IMG/VR virus record: IMGVR_UViG_3300018080_008375
Span: 1 to 64,000 of that record
Source of the DNA: a virus
Direction: 5' to 3' (one strand)
Length of the DNA: 64,000 nucleotides
In this document: positions 4,316-55,862 of the stretch, piece after piece
Layout of the letters: each line of letters opens with the position of its first letter
How positions within the stretch are numbered: position 1 is the first letter of the stretch
The notes under the pieces: model-generated
What the model saw: the letters and a program-made list of their open reading frames with translations, nothing else
What the model was told of the DNA's origin: nothing
Databases searched by the model: none
Position numbers and translations under genes: made by a program

Positions 4316-4522
4316 ATGATGGCAAAAAAGAGCAAGGACTTTCTGAAGCACTGGTTCAATGTCGGGAAGGACAGCGGAAAGAGCACGATGTTCCTGGTGC
4401 GGTCCACCCTGACCGGGAACGTCATGGCCTTCTACGACGACGAGCCGGGCGGGAGCTTTGAGACAATCGGCAGGTACGACCTGTCCAAGCCGTTCGGAAA
4501 GCAAGATGGGAAGGCGATCTGA
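4316..4522 (+). CDS. hypothetical protein, paralog of 5745-5987
   Basis: Shared pattern WFN.G...G...M.LVR ... YDL...F..Q. Confidence 0.65.
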   Translation: MMAKKSKDFLKHWFNVGKDSGKSTMFLVRSTLTGNVMAFYDDEPGGSFETIGRYDLSKPFGKQDGKAI

Positions 4523-29293: not shown

Positions 29294-29367
29294 GCTGCGG
29301 TAGCCCAACCGGCAGAGGCACTAGCCCGAGGCGCTAGCCAGTGAGGGTTCGAATCCCTCCCGCAGCA
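29294..29367 (+). tRNA. tRNA-Leu(GAG), C33, short variable loop
   Basis: Acceptor GCTGCGG/CCGCAGC; anticodon arm CTAGC-CCGAGGC-GCTAG. Confidence 0.87.
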
Positions 29368-29396
29368 CACCAGATCAAAGTAAGGCTGTGTACAAG

Positions 29397-37329: not shown

Positions 37330-37587
37330 ATGGACGAAAACAGAATGGGAAATTACAACCGGGAGAAGAGTAGCCCGAGCGCCAAACAGTTGCTGCGGCA
37401 GCTGAGAGAGATGAAAACGCTGTTCAGGCGCGAGAGGGACACGGTGCGCAAGAACATCGCCCTGCTGACGGCGAACATGGGAGAGTTCGCCGTCGCCATT
37501 GACGCCGCCCTGGAAAAGACCAAAGGCAGCCTGGAAGAGCTGCGGGCGTACAGGAAGGCGATGGAGCGGAGGTCGGACAGGAAATGA
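37330..37587 (+). CDS. coiled-coil hypothetical protein
   Basis: GGAGG RBS. Confidence 0.6.
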   Translation: MDENRMGNYNREKSSPSAKQLLRQLREMKTLFRRERDTVRKNIALLTANMGEFAVAIDAALEKTKGSLEELRAYRKAMERRSDRK

Positions 37588-37624
37588 CTTGGGACTACCA
37601 GCACTGGAACTAGGGAGATGCGAT

Positions 37625-38128
37625 ATGGAGCGGACACTGCTCTTGAGCCAATCGTACGAGCCGATTGCGACCATATCCTGGCAGAGGGCCATATGCCTGC
37701 TGATGCTGGGCAAGGTGGAGATAGTCGAGGAGTACGACCGCAGCGTGCGCTCCGTGTCGGTGGTTTTCAAGATGCCGGCCGTCGTGCGCCTGGTGAATGC
37801 TTTCAGGCGCCACAAGAAGGGCGTCAAGTTCAGCAAGCAGAATGTTTTTGCGCGGGACAGGTGGAAATGCCAGTATTGCGGCATCAAGAAACCAGCAACT
37901 GAACTCACATATGACCATGTTGTTCCAAGGTCTCGAGGTGGCAAGACATGCTGGGAGAACATTGTCACGTCGTGCTCGGAATGTAATTCCAAGAAGGGCA
38001 ACAGGACTCCGCAGCAGGCCGGAATGAGGCTGAAGAGGGTTCCGGTCAGGCCTGACTGGGTGCCCGTGTTCGCCGTGCAGGTGAGCCGCGACATGCCCGA
38101 TGCGTGGCGCAACTACTGCTGGAGTTAG
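37625..38128 (+). CDS. HNH endonuclease (McrA-like HNH_5 type)
   Basis: TLLLSQSYEP...FARDRWKCQYCG...TYDHVVPRSRGG..WENIVTSCSECN. Confidence 0.9.
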   Translation: MERTLLLSQSYEPIATISWQRAICLLMLGKVEIVEEYDRSVRSVSVVFKMPAVVRLVNAFRRHKKGVKFSKQNVFARDRWKCQYCGIKKPATELTYDHVVPRSRGGKTCWENIVTSCSECNSKKGNRTPQQAGMRLKRVPVRPDWVPVFAVQVSRDMPDAWRNYCWS

Positions 38129-38196
38129 TTTTTTACTAGCATTTTCTACCAATATTCCTGTATGTACACACATATGGAATATTGGAGGTTCGAATC

Positions 38197-38931
38197 GTGA
38201 AGGGTCAAACCAAGTATGAAAAGGAAATTGTAGAAAATGCTGTTCAAAACGCGCGATCTTTAAGAGAAGCCATTGAGAATCTTGGTCTAAAACCCAACAA
38301 TGGCAACTACAGGTTTATTTCTGCAAAAGTAAGGCTGTACGGCATATCCATAGAGCATTTTGTAAGACACGCAACGCGTGGGTGTACGGCACACAATAGC
38401 CAAGCAATAAGGAATGTTCGAAACCAGTTGCGATGGACGGATGATGAGTTGTTCAGAAAATCGTCTGTATATGTTTCTGGTTCGAGACTGAGAAAACGTT
38501 TGTTGGAAAAGGGGTGGGAATACAAGTGTGCCATATGCGGGCATGATCCCATATGGAACGGGAAAAAGCTTACTTTACAAGTAGATCATATCAACGGAGA
38601 TAGCATTGATAACAGGTTGGAAAATCTGAGGTTTTTGTGTCCGAACTGCCATTCCCAAACGGCAACTTTCGGGAACAACAAAAATCGTGCTACAAAGCCT
38701 GAGAAAACCTGTAACATATGTGGTCGACCTGTCCATTACAAAAACAAAAGCGGACGGTGTCGAGGCTGTAGCAACAGACTTAGTGGTTGTCAGCGGCGTG
38801 GGCAAAACACAAAAATAAAATGGCCGCCGCACGCACGGCTTTTGAAAATGGTCGAAAAAACTTCATTTTCGGCTGTCGGAAGAAAGCTTGGTGTTTCTGA
38901 TAATGCAGTTCGCAAGCATCTTAAAATATGA
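38197..38931 (+). CDS. HNH homing endonuclease, paralog of 3331-3996
   Basis: LQVDHINGDSIDNRLENLRFLCPNCHSQT; shared tail RKLGVSDNAVRK. Confidence 0.9.
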   Translation: MKGQTKYEKEIVENAVQNARSLREAIENLGLKPNNGNYRFISAKVRLYGISIEHFVRHATRGCTAHNSQAIRNVRNQLRWTDDELFRKSSVYVSGSRLRKRLLEKGWEYKCAICGHDPIWNGKKLTLQVDHINGDSIDNRLENLRFLCPNCHSQTATFGNNKNRATKPEKTCNICGRPVHYKNKSGRCRGCSNRLSGCQRRGQNTKIKWPPHARLLKMVEKTSFSAVGRKLGVSDNAVRKHLKI

Positions 38932-40617: not shown

Positions 40618-41076
40618 ATGGGAAACAAGCCGTGGTACGGAGACTGGCACCTGCTGTACGAGCTTAGCAACAGCGGGGGACCGTATCCCTCCCCGCCCGC
40701 GCCGGGCGCCAAGGCGGTCCCGTTCGGATTCGAGGTTCCGAAGCATCCGTGGCCCGAGTGGCTGGACGGCAACTACAAGGTCCTGTCCAACCCGGCGTAC
40801 AGGTCGTCGTACGACAGCAGCTCAGCGAGCGGCTCGATCGGAATATACAGCTTCGAGATCCGGGTGGTCCTCAAGGACGGCGTGAGCGAGGAAGCGGCCG
40901 TCGAGCGCCTGTACGCGTCGGGATGCGACGACGCACTGTTTGCCGTGTGCGACGGGGGCGTCAGGCTCGATTTCGACAGGGAAGCCGATTCTTTAAGCGA
41001 GGCGCTGGATTCGGCCTGCGCCGATATCATGAAATCCGGCGTTGCGCTGATGTGCGGCAGCAAAAAGATACGATAG
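40618..41076 (+). CDS. hypothetical protein
   Basis: LYASGCDDAL...LDFDREA.S...A motif. Confidence 0.65.
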   Translation: MGNKPWYGDWHLLYELSNSGGPYPSPPAPGAKAVPFGFEVPKHPWPEWLDGNYKVLSNPAYRSSYDSSSASGSIGIYSFEIRVVLKDGVSEEAAVERLYASGCDDALFAVCDGGVRLDFDREADSLSEALDSACADIMKSGVALMCGSKKIR

Positions 41077-41087
41077 GAGGTTTCAAA

Positions 41088-41811
41088 ATGACAAACACAA
41101 GGAGGTCTCTTTGACAAGGCTCTTGTCGAGATAAGGGCCGCAGAAGGTGGAGACGACGCGAAGCTGCTTGTCTCGGACCTGTTCCAAGTCTACATGAAGT
41201 GGTGCCGCCGCCGCGGCTTCGAGGCTGACATGTCGTTCAGCGCCGAGGCTGGAGGCGGTTTTTCTTTGGTTGAATTCGTGGTGTCCGGAGACGGCGCGCG
41301 CGATGCGTTCATGAACGAAGCCGGAGGCCACAGGTTCCAGAGGGTGCCGCCAACAGAAAAGCGAGGAAGGAGACAGACATCCACGGTGACGGTGGCAGTC
41401 CTGCCGATAGCGTCCGAGACAGAAATGAGAATAGACCAGTCAGAGTTGTCATGGGAGGTGAAGCGCGGGAATGGAGCCGGAGGCCAGCATCGCAATGTTA
41501 CCGAAAGCGCCGTTAGGGTGACGCATGTTTCTACAGGCATTTCAGCCACATGCCAAGACGAGCGGTCCCAGCACCGCAACAAGAAGAGGGCGCTTGAGAT
41601 ACTGCGCGCCAGGCTTTTTGACAAGGTGGAATCGGAATCCGCAGCTGAGGAAAATGCCAGGAGAAAGAAGCAGGTTGGGTCAGGAATGCGCGGGGACAAG
41701 ATCAGGACCTACCGCTACCAGGACGGAAGGGCGGTGGATCACAGGACTGGCAGGAAGGTGAGGCTGGAAGATGTTTTGTCTGGAAACCTGGATGTTTTTC
41801 GAAAGGGCTAG
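41088..41811 (+). CDS. class I peptide chain release factor (PxT type, no domain 1), expressed via a +1 frameshift at 41109-41115
   Basis: MTNTRRSL-TGA, then +1 frame DKALVEIRAAEGGDDAK...HRFQRVPPTEKRGRRQTS...GAGGQHRNVTESAVR...KIRTY. Confidence 0.9.
41100..41115 (+). promoter_or_regulatory. prfB-type programmed +1 frameshift signal
   Basis: AGGAGG-TCT-CTT-TGA-C matches the internal SD, 3-nt spacer and CTT TGA C cassette of bacterial prfB. Confidence 0.88.
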
Positions 41812-42971
41812 TTGTCCACTTTTTTGCCGGATCTCCACTGATAGCATGACCAGTACTTCGCCTTTGTCTTGTCTTTGGCGGATTCGCTGTCGCATTTGTG
41901 CCGAGAACGGAAATTTCTCCTGCGTTCCGGGTCGTCGCGCCTGATTTCCATTTCCGGGTCGCCAAACTGTATTTTGCGCACCTTCTTGGTTTTCGGGTCC
42001 TTTACAAAGACATGAAACTTTTTCTTGTTTCCTGGCGGGTTGCGAACCGGGTCGTTCAGCTTGATCTTTTTTCCTTGGTATTCGGCAGCCGACACATGTA
42101 GGCTGCTCTTTTTGGGTTTGGAGAATTCCTGGATCTTCCTGAACGATGCCTCGAATTCTTTTTCCATATCGATGATGGCTTGTTTTTTGTCGGTAATTTC
42201 TTGTTCAAGTTCTTCCCATCTGGGAGAGAGCCTGGAGCGTATCTCCTGGATCTCTTTGGCGCGCGGGTTTTTTCTCTCTATGCGCAGCATGCGCGCGTAT
42301 TCGGGACGCATTTTTTCCCTTTCGATGTTGAGCGTTTTCAGCTCCTGCCTGGCTCTTGGAATCATCTCCTCGCTAAGCTGGCGGGCGGCGTCTATTTCGC
42401 GCTCGAGCCTTGACCCCTTGGCCATTTTGGCGATGTCGGATATTTTCCAGGCGGCGTAGTGAAGCTCGTTGTCGAATGCGTGGAACGGCTTGAGGCCTTT
42501 TGACATGACATAGTTTATGAACGACTCCTTGTCCGTGAAGCCTAGGAGGCGCGTGGCGGCATAGGTGGTCGTGTATATCTTTTCTCCATTTCGGGTGTTG
42601 CGCTGGACAAAATCGCGCAGGCGCCCTGACACAGAGCGCGGAAGCTCTGAGAGGGGCATCTTGTACAGCTCCTCTTCCACGAGTTTGACCTCGTGAGGGG
42701 ACAGCGGTTCGCCTCGGTTCATTTTCTCTTTTAATTCCGCAGCTCTCCTGGCACATTTTGGACATTGCGACATATTGGGCGGAATTTCTTTTCCGCATAT
42801 GCGGCATGATGGTCTTTTTTCAGGTTTTTTTTCTTTGCGTTTTGTTTTGTGTGCGGACATCGGTCTGTCCGGGCAGTTTGGGCAGGTTGAAAGGTTTGCG
42901 GAAAACTTTCCGCCGCATTTCGGGCAGATGCGCCATCTGCCGGCTCGTTTGAACATGGGGCGTGTTGTCAT
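41808..42971 (-). CDS. hypothetical protein (Zn ribbons plus C-terminal phage domain)
   Basis: CPKC/CRIC motifs; C-terminus KKFHVFVKDP...FGDP...RRNFRSRHKC...YWSC. Confidence 0.75.
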   Translation of the reverse strand: MTTRPMFKRAGRWRICPKCGGKFSANLSTCPNCPDRPMSAHKTKRKEKKPEKRPSCRICGKEIPPNMSQCPKCARRAAELKEKMNRGEPLSPHEVKLVEEELYKMPLSELPRSVSGRLRDFVQRNTRNGEKIYTTTYAATRLLGFTDKESFINYVMSKGLKPFHAFDNELHYAAWKISDIAKMAKGSRLEREIDAARQLSEEMIPRARQELKTLNIEREKMRPEYARMLRIERKNPRAKEIQEIRSRLSPRWEELEQEITDKKQAIIDMEKEFEASFRKIQEFSKPKKSSLHVSAAEYQGKKIKLNDPVRNPPGNKKKFHVFVKDPKTKKVRKIQFGDPEMEIRRDDPERRRNFRSRHKCDSESAKDKTKAKYWSCYQWRSGKKVDN

Positions 42972-43045
42972 GTCGCACTCCTACTGATGGTCAGTTATAT
43001 CTATTCGTGATTATTGATAGAATTTTGCCTAACAAGGATGGGACA

Positions 43046-43813
43046 ATGCTGTTCAAAGAGTTTGATGCGCGGATGCGCGTATACGAGACGGCGCACGACC
43101 AATGTGTTCTTCCTGGGGTATACATGGTTGCACGCCTTGATGGAAGGTGTTTTACGCGCCTTACAAAGGTACAAAGGTTTGAGAGGCCGTTTGACGTCGA
43201 TTTTCGCGACCATATGGTCGCCGTTGCGTGCCACTTGATGCGCTGTGGATTCAACGCAACATACGCTTACATACAGAGCGACGAAATTTCGCTGCTATTT
43301 GATTTGGCAGAAAACACTTTCGGTCGCAAGCTGCGCAAGTTAAATTCCGTGCTGGCAGGGGAGGCAAGCGCTAAGTTCACAAAATGCCTCGGCGGAGGGG
43401 ACATGGGAGTGTTCGATTGCCGCATTTCCCAGCTGCCGCGCACAGGCGATGTGGTTGATTACTTTCGCTGGAGGCAGGAGGACGCTTATCGCAATGCGCT
43501 ACATGGTCACTGCTATTGGATGCTTCGCGGCGATGGCAGGAGTGCTTCCGAAGCTACGAGCTTGTTAAGCGGCAGTTCGTCCTCCGACAAGCAAGAGCTG
43601 CTGTTTTCCAATGGGACGAACTTCAACGGCATTCCATTGTGGCATAAGCGCGGAACTGGGATATATTGGGAAACATACAAGAAGAAAGCTGCCAATCCAG
43701 TTACCGGCGACAAAGTGGATGTCGAGCGCAGGCGCATTAGAGTTGATTTTGAGTTGCCGATACATGATGAATATGCGTTGTTCGTGCGCCGTCTGATCGG
43801 CGTTTTGACATGA
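43046..43813 (+). CDS. Thg1-like protein (tRNA-His guanylyltransferase / 3'-5' polymerase)
   Basis: ARLDGRCFTRLT, YIQSDEISL, FDCR, DYFRWRQEDAYRN and KRG. Confidence 0.93.
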   Translation: MLFKEFDARMRVYETAHDQCVLPGVYMVARLDGRCFTRLTKVQRFERPFDVDFRDHMVAVACHLMRCGFNATYAYIQSDEISLLFDLAENTFGRKLRKLNSVLAGEASAKFTKCLGGGDMGVFDCRISQLPRTGDVVDYFRWRQEDAYRNALHGHCYWMLRGDGRSASEATSLLSGSSSSDKQELLFSNGTNFNGIPLWHKRGTGIYWETYKKKAANPVTGDKVDVERRRIRVDFELPIHDEYALFVRRLIGVLT

Positions 43814-43831: not shown

Positions 43832-44365
43832 ATGGAAGTTCACTGGATAGCCGCTATTTCCGCCATCTTGCCCATGGCGTTTCTGCAGAGCGTCATACAC
43901 CAGCTGTCGCACGGACTGGCAATGCGGATTGGATGGAAGTGGGGGTTTAAAATACATCCGCTCCCATCCAAGGGGGCGTCTGGCGTTGTATGGCCGCATG
44001 TGACATACAGGATGTGTAGTAAATCGTGCGATCTGGACATGTTCGGAAAGGCTATCGCATCTATTGCGCCAAAAATAGCGAATGTCGTCTTGGTCATGGC
44101 ATCTGGCATTGCCATAACTCAGTTGCTTAATCCAACGCTTCTGACCCTTCTGCTCATGTTCGCCTTGGCGAACACAGTCGACTTCATGTCTGCGTTGTCA
44201 ATATTTCGCAAAAGCGGCACTTCGGACATATGGAGGTTTTCCAACTACACCGGAATCGAAACCAGTCATGTAAGATGGTTCGTGGCTGCAATTTCATTTT
44301 TGCTGCTGCTGCTAGTTGTCGTGTCTTTTTTCGGTCGGGTGCTTCCACAGACGGGAATATTATGA
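43832..44365 (+). CDS. multi-TM protein, degenerate M50-like (HQLSH)
   Basis: Hydrophobic helices; HExxH with E->Q. Confidence 0.55.
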   Translation: MEVHWIAAISAILPMAFLQSVIHQLSHGLAMRIGWKWGFKIHPLPSKGASGVVWPHVTYRMCSKSCDLDMFGKAIASIAPKIANVVLVMASGIAITQLLNPTLLTLLLMFALANTVDFMSALSIFRKSGTSDIWRFSNYTGIETSHVRWFVAAISFLLLLLVVVSFFGRVLPQTGIL

Positions 44366-45471
44366 ATCGCATCATTAGGTCGAGAGTGCGCGGCGCCATT
44401 GTCGGAACGGCGATAGGCGATGCGCTCGGGATGCCCGCGGAGGGCATGACGCCACAAGCCATAGCCCAGATGTACGGTCGCCTTCGTTCTTTTGCGAATC
44501 CTAAAGGGGGGACCTGGGCGCATACACATCATCAGCTTGGGCGAGGGCAGTGGACGGACGACACGCAGCTTATGCTCGCCATTGGCGAATCGCTTTTGGC
44601 AAAGAAGCATGTCGATTTCCGGGACATCGCGGACAGGCATATATCCGCGATGGCGGAAAAGCGCGGATGGGGCGGATCGACGGTCACCGGCGTTTCCAAG
44701 ATACGCGCCGGAGTGAATTGGTGGAACTCCGCCAAGCCGGAAGGCGCAGGCAACGGAACGCCCATGAAGATTGCGGCTGTCGGAGCGGTTGCCGGATTAG
44801 GTTTCCTCAAGCCGTTTGACATGGCGTCGACGGTGATCAACATTTCTCGCATGACGCACGGCGACCCGCGGTCTGCGATAGCCGGCATCATCCAGGCTGA
44901 AGCCATCGCCATTGCAATCAAGGGAGGACCAGCGGCCCTCCGCTTGTATCTTGCCCAAGCCGATCAGAGAGCCGAAAGCTGGGAGCGCTGCGTCGGCTCG
45001 CAGGCTCCGCTTCTCAGCGCCAATATGTCTGCCGGTCAGAGTATCATCATGCGCGGCGGCGATCTTGAAAACCTTAGGTCCGCGCTGCGAGCCGGATGCT
45101 TCGTGGTGCAGTCGTTCCCATTCACAATTTCGGCCGTTCTCCTGATGTTCGACCTGCCGCCCGACGAATGCCTGTCCAGGATCGTCGAGCAGGGGGGCGA
45201 TACCGACACTACCGGCGCCATGGCTGGCGCGGTGCTTGGGGCGGCGCATGGCATGGCGTCGTTCCCGGCGCGGCTCAGGCGCGGACTTGAGGGCTATAAA
45301 AGGCTTATTGCTCTTGCTGACGGACTGTGCGCGATGACGGACATGTCGGAGCGTCCATGCGTAAGCGGGAAGTCGTTTTCCAGACCAAAGATTTCCTTTT
45401 CGCGCGGCAACGAAAAGCCAAAGACCTGCCAGCCTTTGGCTGACCTGGCGTTGTCAGCGGAGGGGATGTGA
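44362..45471 (+). CDS. ADP-ribosylglycohydrolase
   Basis: GTAIGDALG, WTDDTQ, GNGTPM, THGDP and GGDTDTTGAMAG. Confidence 0.92.
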   Translation: MNRIIRSRVRGAIVGTAIGDALGMPAEGMTPQAIAQMYGRLRSFANPKGGTWAHTHHQLGRGQWTDDTQLMLAIGESLLAKKHVDFRDIADRHISAMAEKRGWGGSTVTGVSKIRAGVNWWNSAKPEGAGNGTPMKIAAVGAVAGLGFLKPFDMASTVINISRMTHGDPRSAIAGIIQAEAIAIAIKGGPAALRLYLAQADQRAESWERCVGSQAPLLSANMSAGQSIIMRGGDLENLRSALRAGCFVVQSFPFTISAVLLMFDLPPDECLSRIVEQGGDTDTTGAMAGAVLGAAHGMASFPARLRRGLEGYKRLIALADGLCAMTDMSERPCVSGKSFSRPKISFSRGNEKPKTCQPLADLALSAEGM

Positions 45472-46274
45472 TGTACCATTACGATCTTCAGCTCAAGCGC
45501 GGCGGCAATCTCGTATGTATGGAATGGTCGCGCGAAAATGAAAGGTACGAAGAGCGCATCCTGGATAGCGAGGAGATTCCGTTTCACCTCACGAGCACAT
45601 TGTGCACCGAGCGTGGGGCGACATTGCGCGACATCCTGCGCGTGACCGGAAGGCACCCTGAAATTTTTGCCGCAGTGACCGACTGTCCGGCGTTACAGAT
45701 GTTCGTGGACGAGGCTTTCGAGGACAGGGGCGAGGACGAGTGCTGCTGCGGCAGCCTGATGGCGCTGGAGCTGGGATGGGTTGCGTTGGCGGACGCTGAG
45801 AACGGGGAGATCGTGCTTTACGAGCATATGAATTTTCAAGGAAGGGCGCACGACGGAGACGCCATAGGTTTGGAATTTTCGCATGTCGGCGACCTGGCCG
45901 ATGTGCCGATAGAGATAGACGACACCATGATGGTTCGGGAGGGCAGCAATGCCGAAAACATACTGTTTTCGGCAAGAAGGCCAATGACGCTCGAAGAGGT
46001 TGCCAGAGGCATCGTGGGCGAGCTGGCGTTTTTCGGAACGCCGGAAAACAGGGCGAAAGAGGCGGAAGGCTTGAAAAGAGCGGTTGAGGAGGTTGACTCG
46101 GGCTCCGCCAAGCTATATAGTTTGGAAGAGGTAATGAGCAGGATTGAGGCAAGGGCTGATGGGGAAAAGCGTAAGTTTCCGTGCCGCAAGTGCGGGAAAG
46201 ATTCGCGCTGCGCTTGCTTCGGCAAGCCTGCCGACATTTGCCACGAATGCTTTACAAAAATGGAGGAAGACTGA
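45468..46274 (+). CDS. hypothetical protein
   Basis: 268-aa ORF with a C-terminal Zn finger. Confidence 0.7.
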   Translation: MMYHYDLQLKRGGNLVCMEWSRENERYEERILDSEEIPFHLTSTLCTERGATLRDILRVTGRHPEIFAAVTDCPALQMFVDEAFEDRGEDECCCGSLMALELGWVALADAENGEIVLYEHMNFQGRAHDGDAIGLEFSHVGDLADVPIEIDDTMMVREGSNAENILFSARRPMTLEEVARGIVGELAFFGTPENRAKEAEGLKRAVEEVDSGSAKLYSLEEVMSRIEARADGEKRKFPCRKCGKDSRCACFGKPADICHECFTKMEED

Positions 46275-46756
46275 TGAGCAACAAGGAAAAGACAGAAGGG
46301 TTGGGAATCAAAGAAACTTTCGATGTACTGCTGGTGGACGCCATCAAAGCGAACGACACGAAGACAAAAAATTTTATTAGGCAGATGCGCGCCAAGGTGT
46401 CCGAGCACTGCCTGGCAAACAACCTTCCGCGAGACTCGGCTGACCAGGATATCTGGCTCAAGGTCATGAGCGTTTACAAAAAGTCTATCGCAAAGGCGTT
46501 GGAACTGATGGAACGCCGCGGGGCGGGAGACAGCGAACTGGCTGAAGAGTACAAGTTCGAGGTGGATTTCTGTAACAAGTACCTGCCCAGGCCGCTCGGC
46601 TATGACGAAGTGCTTGGGCTTGTCAAGCAGGCTGTGTCAGATATCGGTCCAAACGCAAAGGTTGGTCAGGTTGTGGGCGTTGTGGTGAATGGTTCCGTAC
46701 CTGGCACCGTAGATGCTGTTCTGGCAAAAAGGGCGGCAACGGAAATTCTAGGCTGA
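46274..46756 (+). CDS. GatB/YqeY-domain protein
   Basis: DAIKAND...EYKFEVDFCNKYLPRPL...GQVVG pattern. Confidence 0.7.
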   Translation: MSNKEKTEGLGIKETFDVLLVDAIKANDTKTKNFIRQMRAKVSEHCLANNLPRDSADQDIWLKVMSVYKKSIAKALELMERRGAGDSELAEEYKFEVDFCNKYLPRPLGYDEVLGLVKQAVSDIGPNAKVGQVVGVVVNGSVPGTVDAVLAKRAATEILG

Positions 46757-51147: not shown

Positions 51148-51918
51148 ATGAAAATTTGTGCAATAGACGAAGTGGGCTGTGCTTCCCTATCTGGGCCGGT
51201 ATTCGTCTGCGCTGTCATAGTAGACAGTTGCGTGAAGCCCGTCCCTGGTATCGCTGATTCCAAGCAGCTTACAAAGAAGAAGCGTGAAGTCCTATTCCCA
51301 GCTATTGAAGAAGCTGTGGACGACTTCGCGTACGGAGCGGCAGGTCCGAGAAAGATTGAGGAGCTGAACATCCACCACGCCAAGCTCCTGGCCATGAGGC
51401 AGGCCGTCGAGAAGCTTCTTGCGCGCGGTCACCATCCGAAGCGCACCATAGTCGATGGCGGCTTCACGGTGCCGGGACTGCCCCTCTACATCAACCAGGA
51501 AGCCGTACCGAAAGCCGACAGGGACTTTTGGGAGGTTTCTGCCGCATCAATATTGGCCAAGGTCACGCGCGACCGCCTGATGGCCAACCTCGCTTCCCGC
51601 CCTGGTCTGGGGCATTACGATTGGGAGAACAACGCCGGATACTACACCGCCAAGCACCGGGACGGCATCGTTCTTCACGGACTCACCGCATACCACAGAA
51701 AAACATTCGACATGGTGAAATACTGCGCGTTTCTGCGCGCGGAATACAAGGAATGCCTTGAAAAAGGCGACCCCGAGGAATACTTTGAGGAGGAGTCCCG
51801 CAGGATCGAGCGTTTCGGAAGCGGTCCGTACTGCGGCTACAGGGCCTGGAAGCGCGGGGAGTTCAACACCTGGAAGCCGGTAATGGCAGGGAGCGAAGAC
51901 AATGAAGAAGAAATCTAG
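51148..51918 (+). CDS. rnhB: ribonuclease HII
   Basis: IDEVGCASLSGP, DSKQL, VDG, KAD, SAASILAKVTRD and GY.T..H. Confidence 0.92.
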   Translation: MKICAIDEVGCASLSGPVFVCAVIVDSCVKPVPGIADSKQLTKKKREVLFPAIEEAVDDFAYGAAGPRKIEELNIHHAKLLAMRQAVEKLLARGHHPKRTIVDGGFTVPGLPLYINQEAVPKADRDFWEVSAASILAKVTRDRLMANLASRPGLGHYDWENNAGYYTAKHRDGIVLHGLTAYHRKTFDMVKYCAFLRAEYKECLEKGDPEEYFEEESRRIERFGSGPYCGYRAWKRGEFNTWKPVMAGSEDNEEEI

Positions 51919-53032
51919 TATTGTTGCGGCTCTTTTGGTCGCGCTTTTTCTGGCGTCTTGCGCCGTCGTTGTCCGCATGGGCGTCTGGGACGAGTACGAG
52001 CGACAGGCAGCCGCCAACCCCGAGATGACATGTACGCCCAGCATGTTTGGCGAGGCGTGGCACAGGCTGAAATCAGACCACCTGACCAAGATGACGGACG
52101 CTCAGCTCATGAGGGGTGCCATGGGCGGTCTTGAGAGGGCGGCGGAGAAGTCGGTGGAGATGACTGACCGAGCCCTGTACAATCCGTCCGCCAACGCGTT
52201 TCTCGATATTCTGCGTGTCATCAGCTTTGAGGCGTCGACATACGAGGCGCTGTGCTATTCTTCGATCAGGGGGATGCTGAAAGCCGCCCAGGACAGGTAC
52301 TCTTATCTGGTGGAGGCCAGGCTGGGCAGGCAGTGGCTTGAAGACTCGCTCGGTGGCAAATGGATCGCCGGCAAGACCGAGCGGTCCATTCCATCCTGTA
52401 GCATGAAGCATGGCGTGCCGTACTGCTGGATACCCGCTTTCGGCGCAGGAATGGCGGACATGCTGGCAGACAGAATGCGCAGCACTTTCGGCGTGTGGCC
52501 GGGAGCCATCATAATCGACCTGCGGTCCAACGGCGGCGGCTTCATAGAGTCGGCGGCGGCGGTGGCGAGCAGGTTCTGGCTAGGCAGGAAAACCTCCGCG
52601 TACCTTGTCGGTCGCAAGGTGACAAGGGCTACGAACGGCGGGGTCATCGCGGTGAGCGGAAAGTATCGCAGGCCGCTCCTCAGAAGTTCGCGCACGGTCG
52701 TGCTGGTGGACGGGAACACCATGTCAGCAGCCGAGATGCTTGCTGCCGCGCTCAGGGCGTACGGCATGGCGACTCTGGTTGGGCGGACCACCGGCGGCAA
52801 GGGGGAAATCCAGACCCCCGAGTTTATCGAGGGGGCCGTGATGGTACATACGACGATGCGCTTTCTGGACCCCCTCTACAACGAGGTTGGGGGCACGGGC
52901 GTCCGGCCGCACGTGCGGTCCGTTCTGAGGCTGGGCGACCTTCAGTTCTACGGGCATGACAGTCAGTTGGCTGAGGCAGCCAAGATACTCAGTGATGGAC
53001 ATCAAGATAATCTCGAACGGCAAGGAGCATGA
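51902..53032 (+). CDS. S41 C-terminal processing protease (no PDZ), lipoprotein signal
   Basis: IIDLRSNGGG, TMSAAE and TGGKG.IQ; LFLASC lipobox-like. Confidence 0.85.
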   Translation: MKKKSSIVAALLVALFLASCAVVVRMGVWDEYERQAAANPEMTCTPSMFGEAWHRLKSDHLTKMTDAQLMRGAMGGLERAAEKSVEMTDRALYNPSANAFLDILRVISFEASTYEALCYSSIRGMLKAAQDRYSYLVEARLGRQWLEDSLGGKWIAGKTERSIPSCSMKHGVPYCWIPAFGAGMADMLADRMRSTFGVWPGAIIIDLRSNGGGFIESAAAVASRFWLGRKTSAYLVGRKVTRATNGGVIAVSGKYRRPLLRSSRTVVLVDGNTMSAAEMLAAALRAYGMATLVGRTTGGKGEIQTPEFIEGAVMVHTTMRFLDPLYNEVGGTGVRPHVRSVLRLGDLQFYGHDSQLAEAAKILSDGHQDNLERQGA

Positions 53033-55471: not shown

Positions 55472-55785
55472 TGGGCAAATCCTGGGCGGATGCCGCCATT
55501 GATAAACTGGCTGGCGGCGAATCGGCGGATATCAGGCCGCATGGTAATTCCATGAAGGGAAAGGTCGAGAGCGGGCAGCAGGTAACGGTATCCCCGTGCG
55601 ACGAGAGCGGGCTGGCTGCCGGCGACATGGTGCTCGTGCGCGTGAAGGGGCGCGTGTACCTTCATCTTGTCAAAGCCGTTCGCGAAGGCAAGGACGGAAA
55701 AAGGAGGTTTCAGATAGGCAACAATTGCGGTGGTATAAACGGCTGGGTTGGAGCCAAGGCGATCTACGGAAAAATGGAGGGATGA
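55471..55785 (+). CDS. S24/S26 peptidase-like protein
   Basis: GNSM...GD.VL...YLHLV...GNN.G.INGW...IYGK. Confidence 0.7.
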   Translation: MGKSWADAAIDKLAGGESADIRPHGNSMKGKVESGQQVTVSPCDESGLAAGDMVLVRVKGRVYLHLVKAVREGKDGKRRFQIGNNCGGINGWVGAKAIYGKMEG

Positions 55786-55862
55786 TCCATAGGGGTTGGT
55801 GCCGGATACGGTCCGGGAGCCGCTGCGGCGGTTCAGGGGTTCGATTCCCCTTCCCTCCGCCA
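55776..55862 (+). tRNA. Ser-type tRNA body carrying an ACG anticodon, CCA encoded
   Basis: Acceptor GGAGGGA/TCCCTCC-GCCA; CCGGA-TACGG-TCCGG; long arm GAGCCGC/GCGGTTC; T arm AGGGG-TTCGATT-CCCCT. Confidence 0.75.

Follow-up and report, generated by a model that had tools for sequence, protein, structure and literature searches.

A predicted prfB-like +1 frameshift cassette at the start of an RF1-type release factor gene in a huge phage

The window, the whole 64,000-nucleotide stretch of DNA analysed here, is taken from an IMG/VR virus record of 99.8 kb whose rated completeness is 25%; it is thus part of the genome of a huge (jumbo) phage. On its plus strand, a short leader open reading frame (41088..41114) comprises eight sense codons, MTNTRRSL, and a TGA stop codon, referred to below as the gate; the same eight-codon layout is present in two relatives, L002 and L082. 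The SD of the leader, AGGAGG (41075..41080), lies 7 nt 5’ of the ATG at 41088 and overlaps the TAG stop of the upstream gene (41074-41076). The leader reads ATG ACA AAC ACA AGG AGG TCT CTT TGA, followed by C at 41115, and contains four elements in succession: an internal SD-like AGGAGG (41100..41105), a putative frameshift stimulator placed 3 nt 5’ of the slip codon as in prfB; a spacer (E-site) codon, TCT (41106..41108); the slip codon CTT (41109..41111); and the gate with its following base, TGA-C (41112..41115), which is the weak termination context of prfB. The ribosome binding site, ATG, leader peptide and AGGAGG-TCT-CTT-TGA-C string reported in an earlier note on this DNA can all be read directly in the sequence.

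The likeness to prfB that was proposed from these elements holds point by point. A purine-rich SD-like element lies exactly 3 nt from the slip codon, the slip codon is CUU, the next codon is an in-frame UGA followed by C, and a conserved protein goes on in the +1 frame without a start codon of its own. In the 64-kb window, a search for the 16-nt pattern RGGRGG-N3-CTTTGAC gives one match where 0.02 would be expected by chance, and this sole match is located exactly at the 5’ end of the release factor body; the cassette is non-random. The pattern GG.GG...CTTTGA has a second match at 4448, which does not fall in the local coding frame and is attributed to chance. The leader frame also stays open for 113 codons 5’ of the ATG, as far as a GTG at 40749 (a 121-codon opening, 40749-41114); this opening overlaps a PHROG-supported upstream gene in another frame and was judged incidental in GC-rich DNA. 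An Rfam search gave no matches and the local RNA fold is no better than that of shuffled sequences (z = -1.4); thus, no additional structural stimulator is proposed.

The body in the +1 frame (41113..41811, plus strand) encodes 232 residues (P0001) that begin DKALVEIRAAEGGDDAK and end at a TAG codon, 41809-41811, with no internal stop. The predicted product is therefore 8 + 232 = 240 residues long, with ...SL of the leader joined to DKALVEIR at the junction. Upstream, the +1 frame is closed by a TGA at 41089-41091, and no ATG, GTG or TTG occurs within 41092-41193. The first canonical start in this frame is the ATG at 41194..41196, from which the open reading frame list calls a 205-residue product; a start there would lose the conserved EIRAAEGG strand and helix tip. 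From this arrangement, the gene requires a +1 shift to make its full body, and the earlier suspicion that the listed open reading frame misses the true 5’ end (205 residues from 41194 compared with 240 through the shift) is borne out. Gene callers shorten or skip such genes, as with the 205-residue call from an internal ATG here.

Profile searches and a structural model place the encoded protein among class I release factors. Pfam identifies the second half of PCRF (PF03462, 3.5e-27) and the RF-1 domain (PF00472, 1.9e-31). Comparison with RF1, RF2 and PrfH, which the earlier note had proposed, ranks them in that order, the NCBIfam bit scores of P0001 being 268.6 and 264.2 for the RF1 models TIGR00019 and NF001859 (under their equivalog cut-offs of 400 and 423), 189.9 for RF2, 98.4 for PrfH and 31.8 for ArfB. 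The RF1 profile match spans only 106-333 of 347 and 114-341 of 361 positions; because the match is confined to RF1 positions of about 106-333, domain 1 is absent. The best-scoring relatives of known structure are the RF1 proteins of T. thermophilus and E. coli (E = 3e-58), with the alignment starting at residue 107, and P0001 is 48% identical to T. thermophilus RF1 and 42-48% identical to solved RF1 structures. An AlphaFold model (pLDDT 83) matches free RF1 (1rq0) with a TM score of 0.82-0.85 and free RF2 (2ihr) with 0.88, both of which represent the compact form of class I factors.

The motifs of the protein agree with this placement. The GGQ catalytic motif is encoded at 41479..41487 (residues 123-125), in keeping with the earlier description of a product of about 240 residues that has GGQ and lacks domain 1. 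The RF1-type PxT stop codon recognition motif, also noticed earlier, is present as PPT (41347..41355, residues 79-81). Other stop-reading residues of RF1 are retained as well: the Gly at the alpha-5 tip, the Thr of PPT, Gln181 and Thr194 (T. thermophilus numbering). Several decoding-pocket changes are fixed in the phage clade: at the alpha-5 tip, Glu replaces Thr and Asp replaces Glu, and the central residue of PxT is Pro. In the subclade of the window, Gln replaces His193. By these criteria, the protein is an RF1-type class I release factor made up of domains 2-4 and lacking domain 1. The decoding loop is RF1-type, having PPT as well as Gln and Thr where the third base is read, and from this the product is expected to recognize UAA and UAG and not UGA. 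It does not have the character of RF2, as PPT stands in place of SPF and the RF2 model (TIGR00020) scores only ~190 bits, below the 268 of RF1. PrfH, the partner of RtcB2, is a class I release factor homologue that likewise lacks domain 1, and it is without a PxT loop. Identity with PrfH is rejected at 98.4 bits against the TIGR03072 cut-off of 166.65; RtcB was not found in the 99.8-kb record, which is itself rated 25% complete. The suggestion that the protein acts as a rescue factor gains no support, all elements for reading stop codons having been kept.

Two independent sets of sequence data bear on whether the reading frames are genuine. First, an independently built Logan contig (depth 27), from a run that is probably the source sample, is identical over 40700-41900. 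Second, contigs of another sediment study span 41064-41412 at ~95% identity with no gaps, and leave the cassette unchanged. Eight of the nine substitutions listed downstream of the shift in this variant are at third positions of the +1 frame. The sequencing error that had been considered, an extra T, is excluded by the identical assembly together with a 95% variant of the same frame structure. The third-position substitutions at 41127, 41130 and 41142 precede the ATG at 41194, and thus the stretch from the cassette to 41194 is under protein-coding selection in the +1 frame.

The window contains 31 tRNA genes and a tmRNA. The tRNA genes lie on the plus strand at 3182-39208 and 55776-55862, among small open reading frames and two HNH endonuclease genes (37499-38128 and 38182-38931); they include no suppressors, and a tRNA-Leu(GAG) at 29294-29368 is a reader of the CUU slip codon. 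The phage tmRNA (34615-34961) encodes the tag ANEQFAMAA, and a peptidase of the S41 (tail-specific protease) family is encoded at 51902-53032, 17 kb away. These findings suggest that, with the tmRNA, the S41 peptidase and the release factor, the phage brings its own equipment for termination, rescue and tag degradation. A convergent gene of 387 codons (41808-42971, minus strand), whose stop overlaps that of the release factor gene by 3 nt, has a weak zinc-ribbon match and a match to a PHROG without known function, and nothing else. A Thg1-like tRNA-His guanylyltransferase with Thg1 and Thg1C domains (42962-43813) lies 1.1 kb downstream of the release factor gene, followed by an ADP-ribosylglycohydrolase (44230-45471) and a YqeY/GatB-like protein (46181-46756). 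Further genes encode a NUDIX hydrolase, RNase T, UDG, a deaminase, RNase HII and ThyX.

The phage uses the standard genetic code. Pfam-complete genes for HNH, Thg1, ADP-ribosylglycohydrolase and YqeY end in TGA, and the stops of 123 crudely called open reading frames are TGA in 68, TAG in 31 and TAA in 24. Because TGA ends Pfam-complete genes and no suppressor tRNA is found in the window, the UGA at 41112 is a real stop for this phage. Genome-wide recoding of TGA or TAG in the phage and its sampled relatives is rejected on coding densities of 0.86-0.91 under the standard code (from a crude open reading frame method), and is also contradicted by the TGA-ended Pfam-complete genes and the absence of UGA-suppressor tRNAs.

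About 8,000 database proteins match the release factor, of which the nearest ~60 are 205-250 residues long and are encoded on large contigs. One contig of 254.8 kb encodes a protein that is 99% identical to the release factor. A search of viral contigs with P0001 alone as the query returned no related loci, and the matches listed in a metagenome search are mostly full-length bacterial RF1. A cassette-plus-core pattern applied to bacterial genomes gave at least 120 matches, which is chance level, with no release factor gene among the matches listed, and is uninformative on bacteria. In a quick maximum-likelihood tree, 74 phage proteins separate from eight bacterial RF1 cores, a small outgroup, with an SH-aLRT of 100, and the window groups with L002 and L003 with a support of 84. 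All representatives tested score higher against RF1 than against RF2.

The N-termini of the relatives are of two kinds. Some are clean (MSRTLVEIR, MDTVVVEIR), and others begin with GG[LV]FD or G[IC]FS, the residues expected when the cassette is translated in the +1 frame. The N-termini of the close metagenomic relatives P0004, P0007, P0009, P0010, P0014, P0017 and P0033 fit a +1-read cassette at the protein level; among metagenomic relatives, confirmation at the DNA level is confined to L082 (like P0027). L002, with 65% amino acid identity and from a 442-kb phage rated 100% complete, begins ATG AAT ATG ACT AGG GGG TGT CTT TGA C, which gives an eight-codon leader (MNMTRGCL) and the cassette AGGGGG-TGT-CTT-TGA-C. 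L082, with 60% identity, begins ATG AAT AAG TTT GGG AGG TAT CTT TAG T (L082:1358-1385), an eight-codon leader (MNKFGRYL) with an amber gate, GGGAGG-TAT-CTT-TAG-T, and encodes the same PPT...RRQTST loop as the window. In a second clade, seven leader-type genes (L162 to L176) have leaders of ~20 codons that end in CAGGAG-N3-CTT-TGA-C. The SD-CTT-TGA leader, whose conservation the earlier note regarded as informative, is thus kept in L002, in L082 (with TAG) and in these seven genes. The converse observation, a homologue that is in frame without the cassette, applies to L003, a close relative with 63% identity that has a plain in-frame ATG and no gate.

Cassettes are also found within the gene body. 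A large clade contains 25 internal cassettes at codon ~35, within the codons for ‘RRGL’, with TGA as the gate in 19 genes and TAG in six. Among 35 distinct cassettes of the family, the slip codon is CTT in every one, the gate is TGA in 27, TAG in seven and TAA in one, the base after the gate is C in 28 (TGA-C in 21), and about 29 have an SD-like hexamer separated from the slip codon by one codon. In the maximum-likelihood tree of the phage factors, TGA-gated and TAG-gated genes are interspersed, including within the internal-cassette clade. The recognition tripeptide varies among relatives (PPN, PPS, SPT, SPL), and in the internal-cassette clade it does not sort with the gate codon (PPT, PPN, SPT, SPL). 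TAG usage is slightly higher in phages with TAG gates, with too few phages and too crude a method to establish a link between gate and stop codon usage.

Two further arrangements were observed in the family. L164:9560-9700 (minus strand), in phage record G015, carries two +1 cassettes in tandem, TAA and then TGA: a 13-codon leader ends in GGGAGG-TGT-CTT-TAA-C and, 14 codons on, CGGAGG-TTT-CTT-TGA-C follows, so that two successive shifts would be needed. G015 also has a tRNA with the anticodon CUA. In another clade of ~30 loci (L006, L010, L013, L021, L025, L029, L030 and L037-L081), a TGA occurs in frame at codon 30-45, often at the site of a Trp in bacterial RF1, and reading goes on in the same frame past it; L005 has an in-frame TAG at this site. 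The genomes sampled from this clade, G006-G010, look standard-coded and have no UGA-suppressor tRNA, and the arrangement suggests gene-specific readthrough.

The +1 frameshift of prfB at CUU-UGA-C is the classic example of a protein that gauges its own activity, and to our knowledge a +1 shift at this site has been documented only for RF2. The window gene shares with prfB the AGGAGG, the one-codon spacer, CUU in the P site, UGA-C and a short open reading frame ahead of a release factor body in the +1 frame. It differs from prfB in several respects. Its product is RF1-type, so that the gate codon does not close a feedback loop; its leader has eight codons rather than about 25 and joins domain 2 directly, whereas that of prfB lies within domain 1; its relatives also use UAG; and it is phage-borne. 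The gene is therefore best described, from its sequence, as a probable variant of the prfB device that serves a phage factor of the RF1 type, with the cassette in an eight-codon leader. Huge phages also have short RF1-type genes with an internal CUU-UGA or CUU-UAG cassette, which belong to the same clade and share the cassette grammar and the mix of gate codons; they differ in that their cassette occupies the ‘RRGL’ codons of the body, whereas the window, L002 and L082 have a separate eight-codon leader before the first conserved residue.

Bacterial RF1 (prfA) has the same PCRF and RF-1 domains, PxT and GGQ motifs and domain 2-4 fold. The window factor differs from it in lacking domain 1 (about 105 residues), in scoring below the equivalog cut-offs and in its clade-specific changes at the alpha-5 tip and beside the PxT loop. 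A survey of more than 12,000 bacterial genomes (Prince et al. 2025, PMC12421855) found no compelling programmed frameshifting in prfA, and UAG was absent from its 8,164 prfB motifs. RF1 and RF2 are listed without detail among the translation genes of huge phages (Al-Shayeb et al. 2020, PMC7162821), and in that paper and a 2021 preprint by Borges, RF1 is either merely listed or tied to TGA-recoded phages, with no frameshift or stop codon gate described. Like those genes, the window gene is phage-borne and lies among tRNAs, a tmRNA and translation genes; unlike the recoded phages, its phage is standard-coded. No paper was found on such frameshifting in RF1-type genes or in phage release factors.

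These features may be brought together in a model of how the cassette operates. A ribosome would initiate at the ATG at 41088, read eight codons and arrive at CUU-UGA-C, with AGGAGG of the mRNA, 3 nt before the slip codon, paired to the anti-SD. Two outcomes are then envisaged. In the first, host RF2 would terminate at the UGA and an eight-residue peptide would be released. In the second, the peptidyl-tRNA-Leu would let go of CUU and pair with the +1 codon UUU, after which the ribosome would make the factor. Slow termination at UGA would thus yield more factor. The leakiest specific stop, UGA-C, would be used to report on termination in the infected cell, and slow termination would turn on an extra factor for UAA and UAG.

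Our preferred reading, to which we assign a probability of about 0.6, is that the gate is a cross-wired sensor of host RF2 or of general termination capacity rather than a self-regulatory device of the prfB kind; we infer the shift itself, the control of its rate by RF2 and the codon specificity of the factor from sequence. Two lines of evidence point this way. First, the genomes of three relatives, G001, G004 and G005, which are rated 100% complete and carry a frameshift cassette, each contain one gene with an RF-1 domain, and therefore no phage RF2. With the standard code and no phage RF2, termination at a UGA gate would fall to host RF2 if the phage factor cannot read UGA; since TGA is an ordinary stop and there is a single release factor gene, the gate most likely reports host (RF2) termination capacity. 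Second, the PPT...RRQTST loop is found behind UGA gates (the window, L002) and behind a UAG gate (L082). Because the same loop follows both gates and the tripeptide is unsorted by gate, the gate codon does not appear to be tied to the decoding loop of the product.

The earlier note had left a choice between a cross-wired sensor and a loop of changed specificity; the uncoupling of gate and loop fits the sensor and disfavours a specificity switch as a general explanation. Several points count against the sensor reading. L003 is free of a gate, the record covers only 25% of the genome so that a second factor could lie elsewhere, and the benefit to a phage of having more RF1-type factor when RF2 is short is not evident.

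The strongest alternative, which we nevertheless regard as unlikely, is true autoregulation, in which the short phage factor has broadened its specificity to include UGA, or all three stops, so that the UGA gate is its own codon. One omnipotent factor would be the simplest account of TGA and TAG gates that swap among close relatives with the same loop. The decoding-pocket substitutions throughout the clade and the variant tripeptides PPN, PPS, SPT and SPL make UGA reading possible, and a single release factor gene in complete relatives is also in accord with it. However, the Thr of PxT, Gln181 and Thr194, which exclude G at position 2 in RF1, are retained in the window protein, and the HMMs favour RF1 by about 80 bits; by profile and PPT loop alike, the product looks like an RF1-type factor and not like a reader of its own gate codon.

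Less probable still is that the cassette serves as a fixed throttle, keeping a potentially toxic factor low or late at a roughly constant efficiency without sensing anything. Over-expressed release factors lower fitness (PMC12421855), the gate codon seems interchangeable and L003 does without a gate, all of which would suit a throttle. Against this, 35 cassettes at three gene positions agree precisely in slip codon, spacer and weak stop context, and TAA is nearly absent from the gates. Such precise conservation and the rarity of TAA point to selection for a termination-sensitive site and not merely for a weak start.

It is very improbable that no frameshift occurs and that the cassette is incidental, with initiation at the ATG at 41194 (205 residues) or at a non-canonical codon. 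That ATG is the earliest canonical start in the +1 frame, and gene callers picked equivalent internal starts in the relatives P0012, P0018 and P0022-25. However, initiation at this ATG would cost the protein its strand and helix tip, EIRAAEGGDDAK, an element that is unchanged throughout the family and is aligned with the U1-reading residues of RF1; in addition, the variation confined to third positions reaches 5’ of 41194, and no SD precedes this ATG. A pseudogene or an assembly or sequencing error (the extra T) can give rise to a single-base frame break, but the identical independent assembly, a variant from another study that keeps the frame structure, a cassette retained in diverged relatives and a body under purifying selection leave this explanation almost no likelihood, and it is rejected as far as sequence data permit.

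The known system is defined by a link between gate codon and product, and this link is broken in RF1-type phage genes with the same device, with UGA in the window gene and with UAG in a 60%-identical relative. Such genes provide a natural test of what the cassette senses, and compact 240-residue release factors without domain 1 may find use in genetic code engineering. Their existence also suggests that huge phages have a circuit for controlling termination. As a tentative and rather doubtful generalization, huge phages may possess a release factor without domain 1 that is switched on by termination failure, through a generic gate that occurs at three or more gene positions (behind an eight-codon leader, behind a 20-codon leader and at codon ~35), with UGA, UAG or UAA and even in tandem (L164). 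The factor would perhaps be omnipotent and independent of RF3, and the circuit, so far undescribed and with the window gene as one example, would take over termination when host factors run short.
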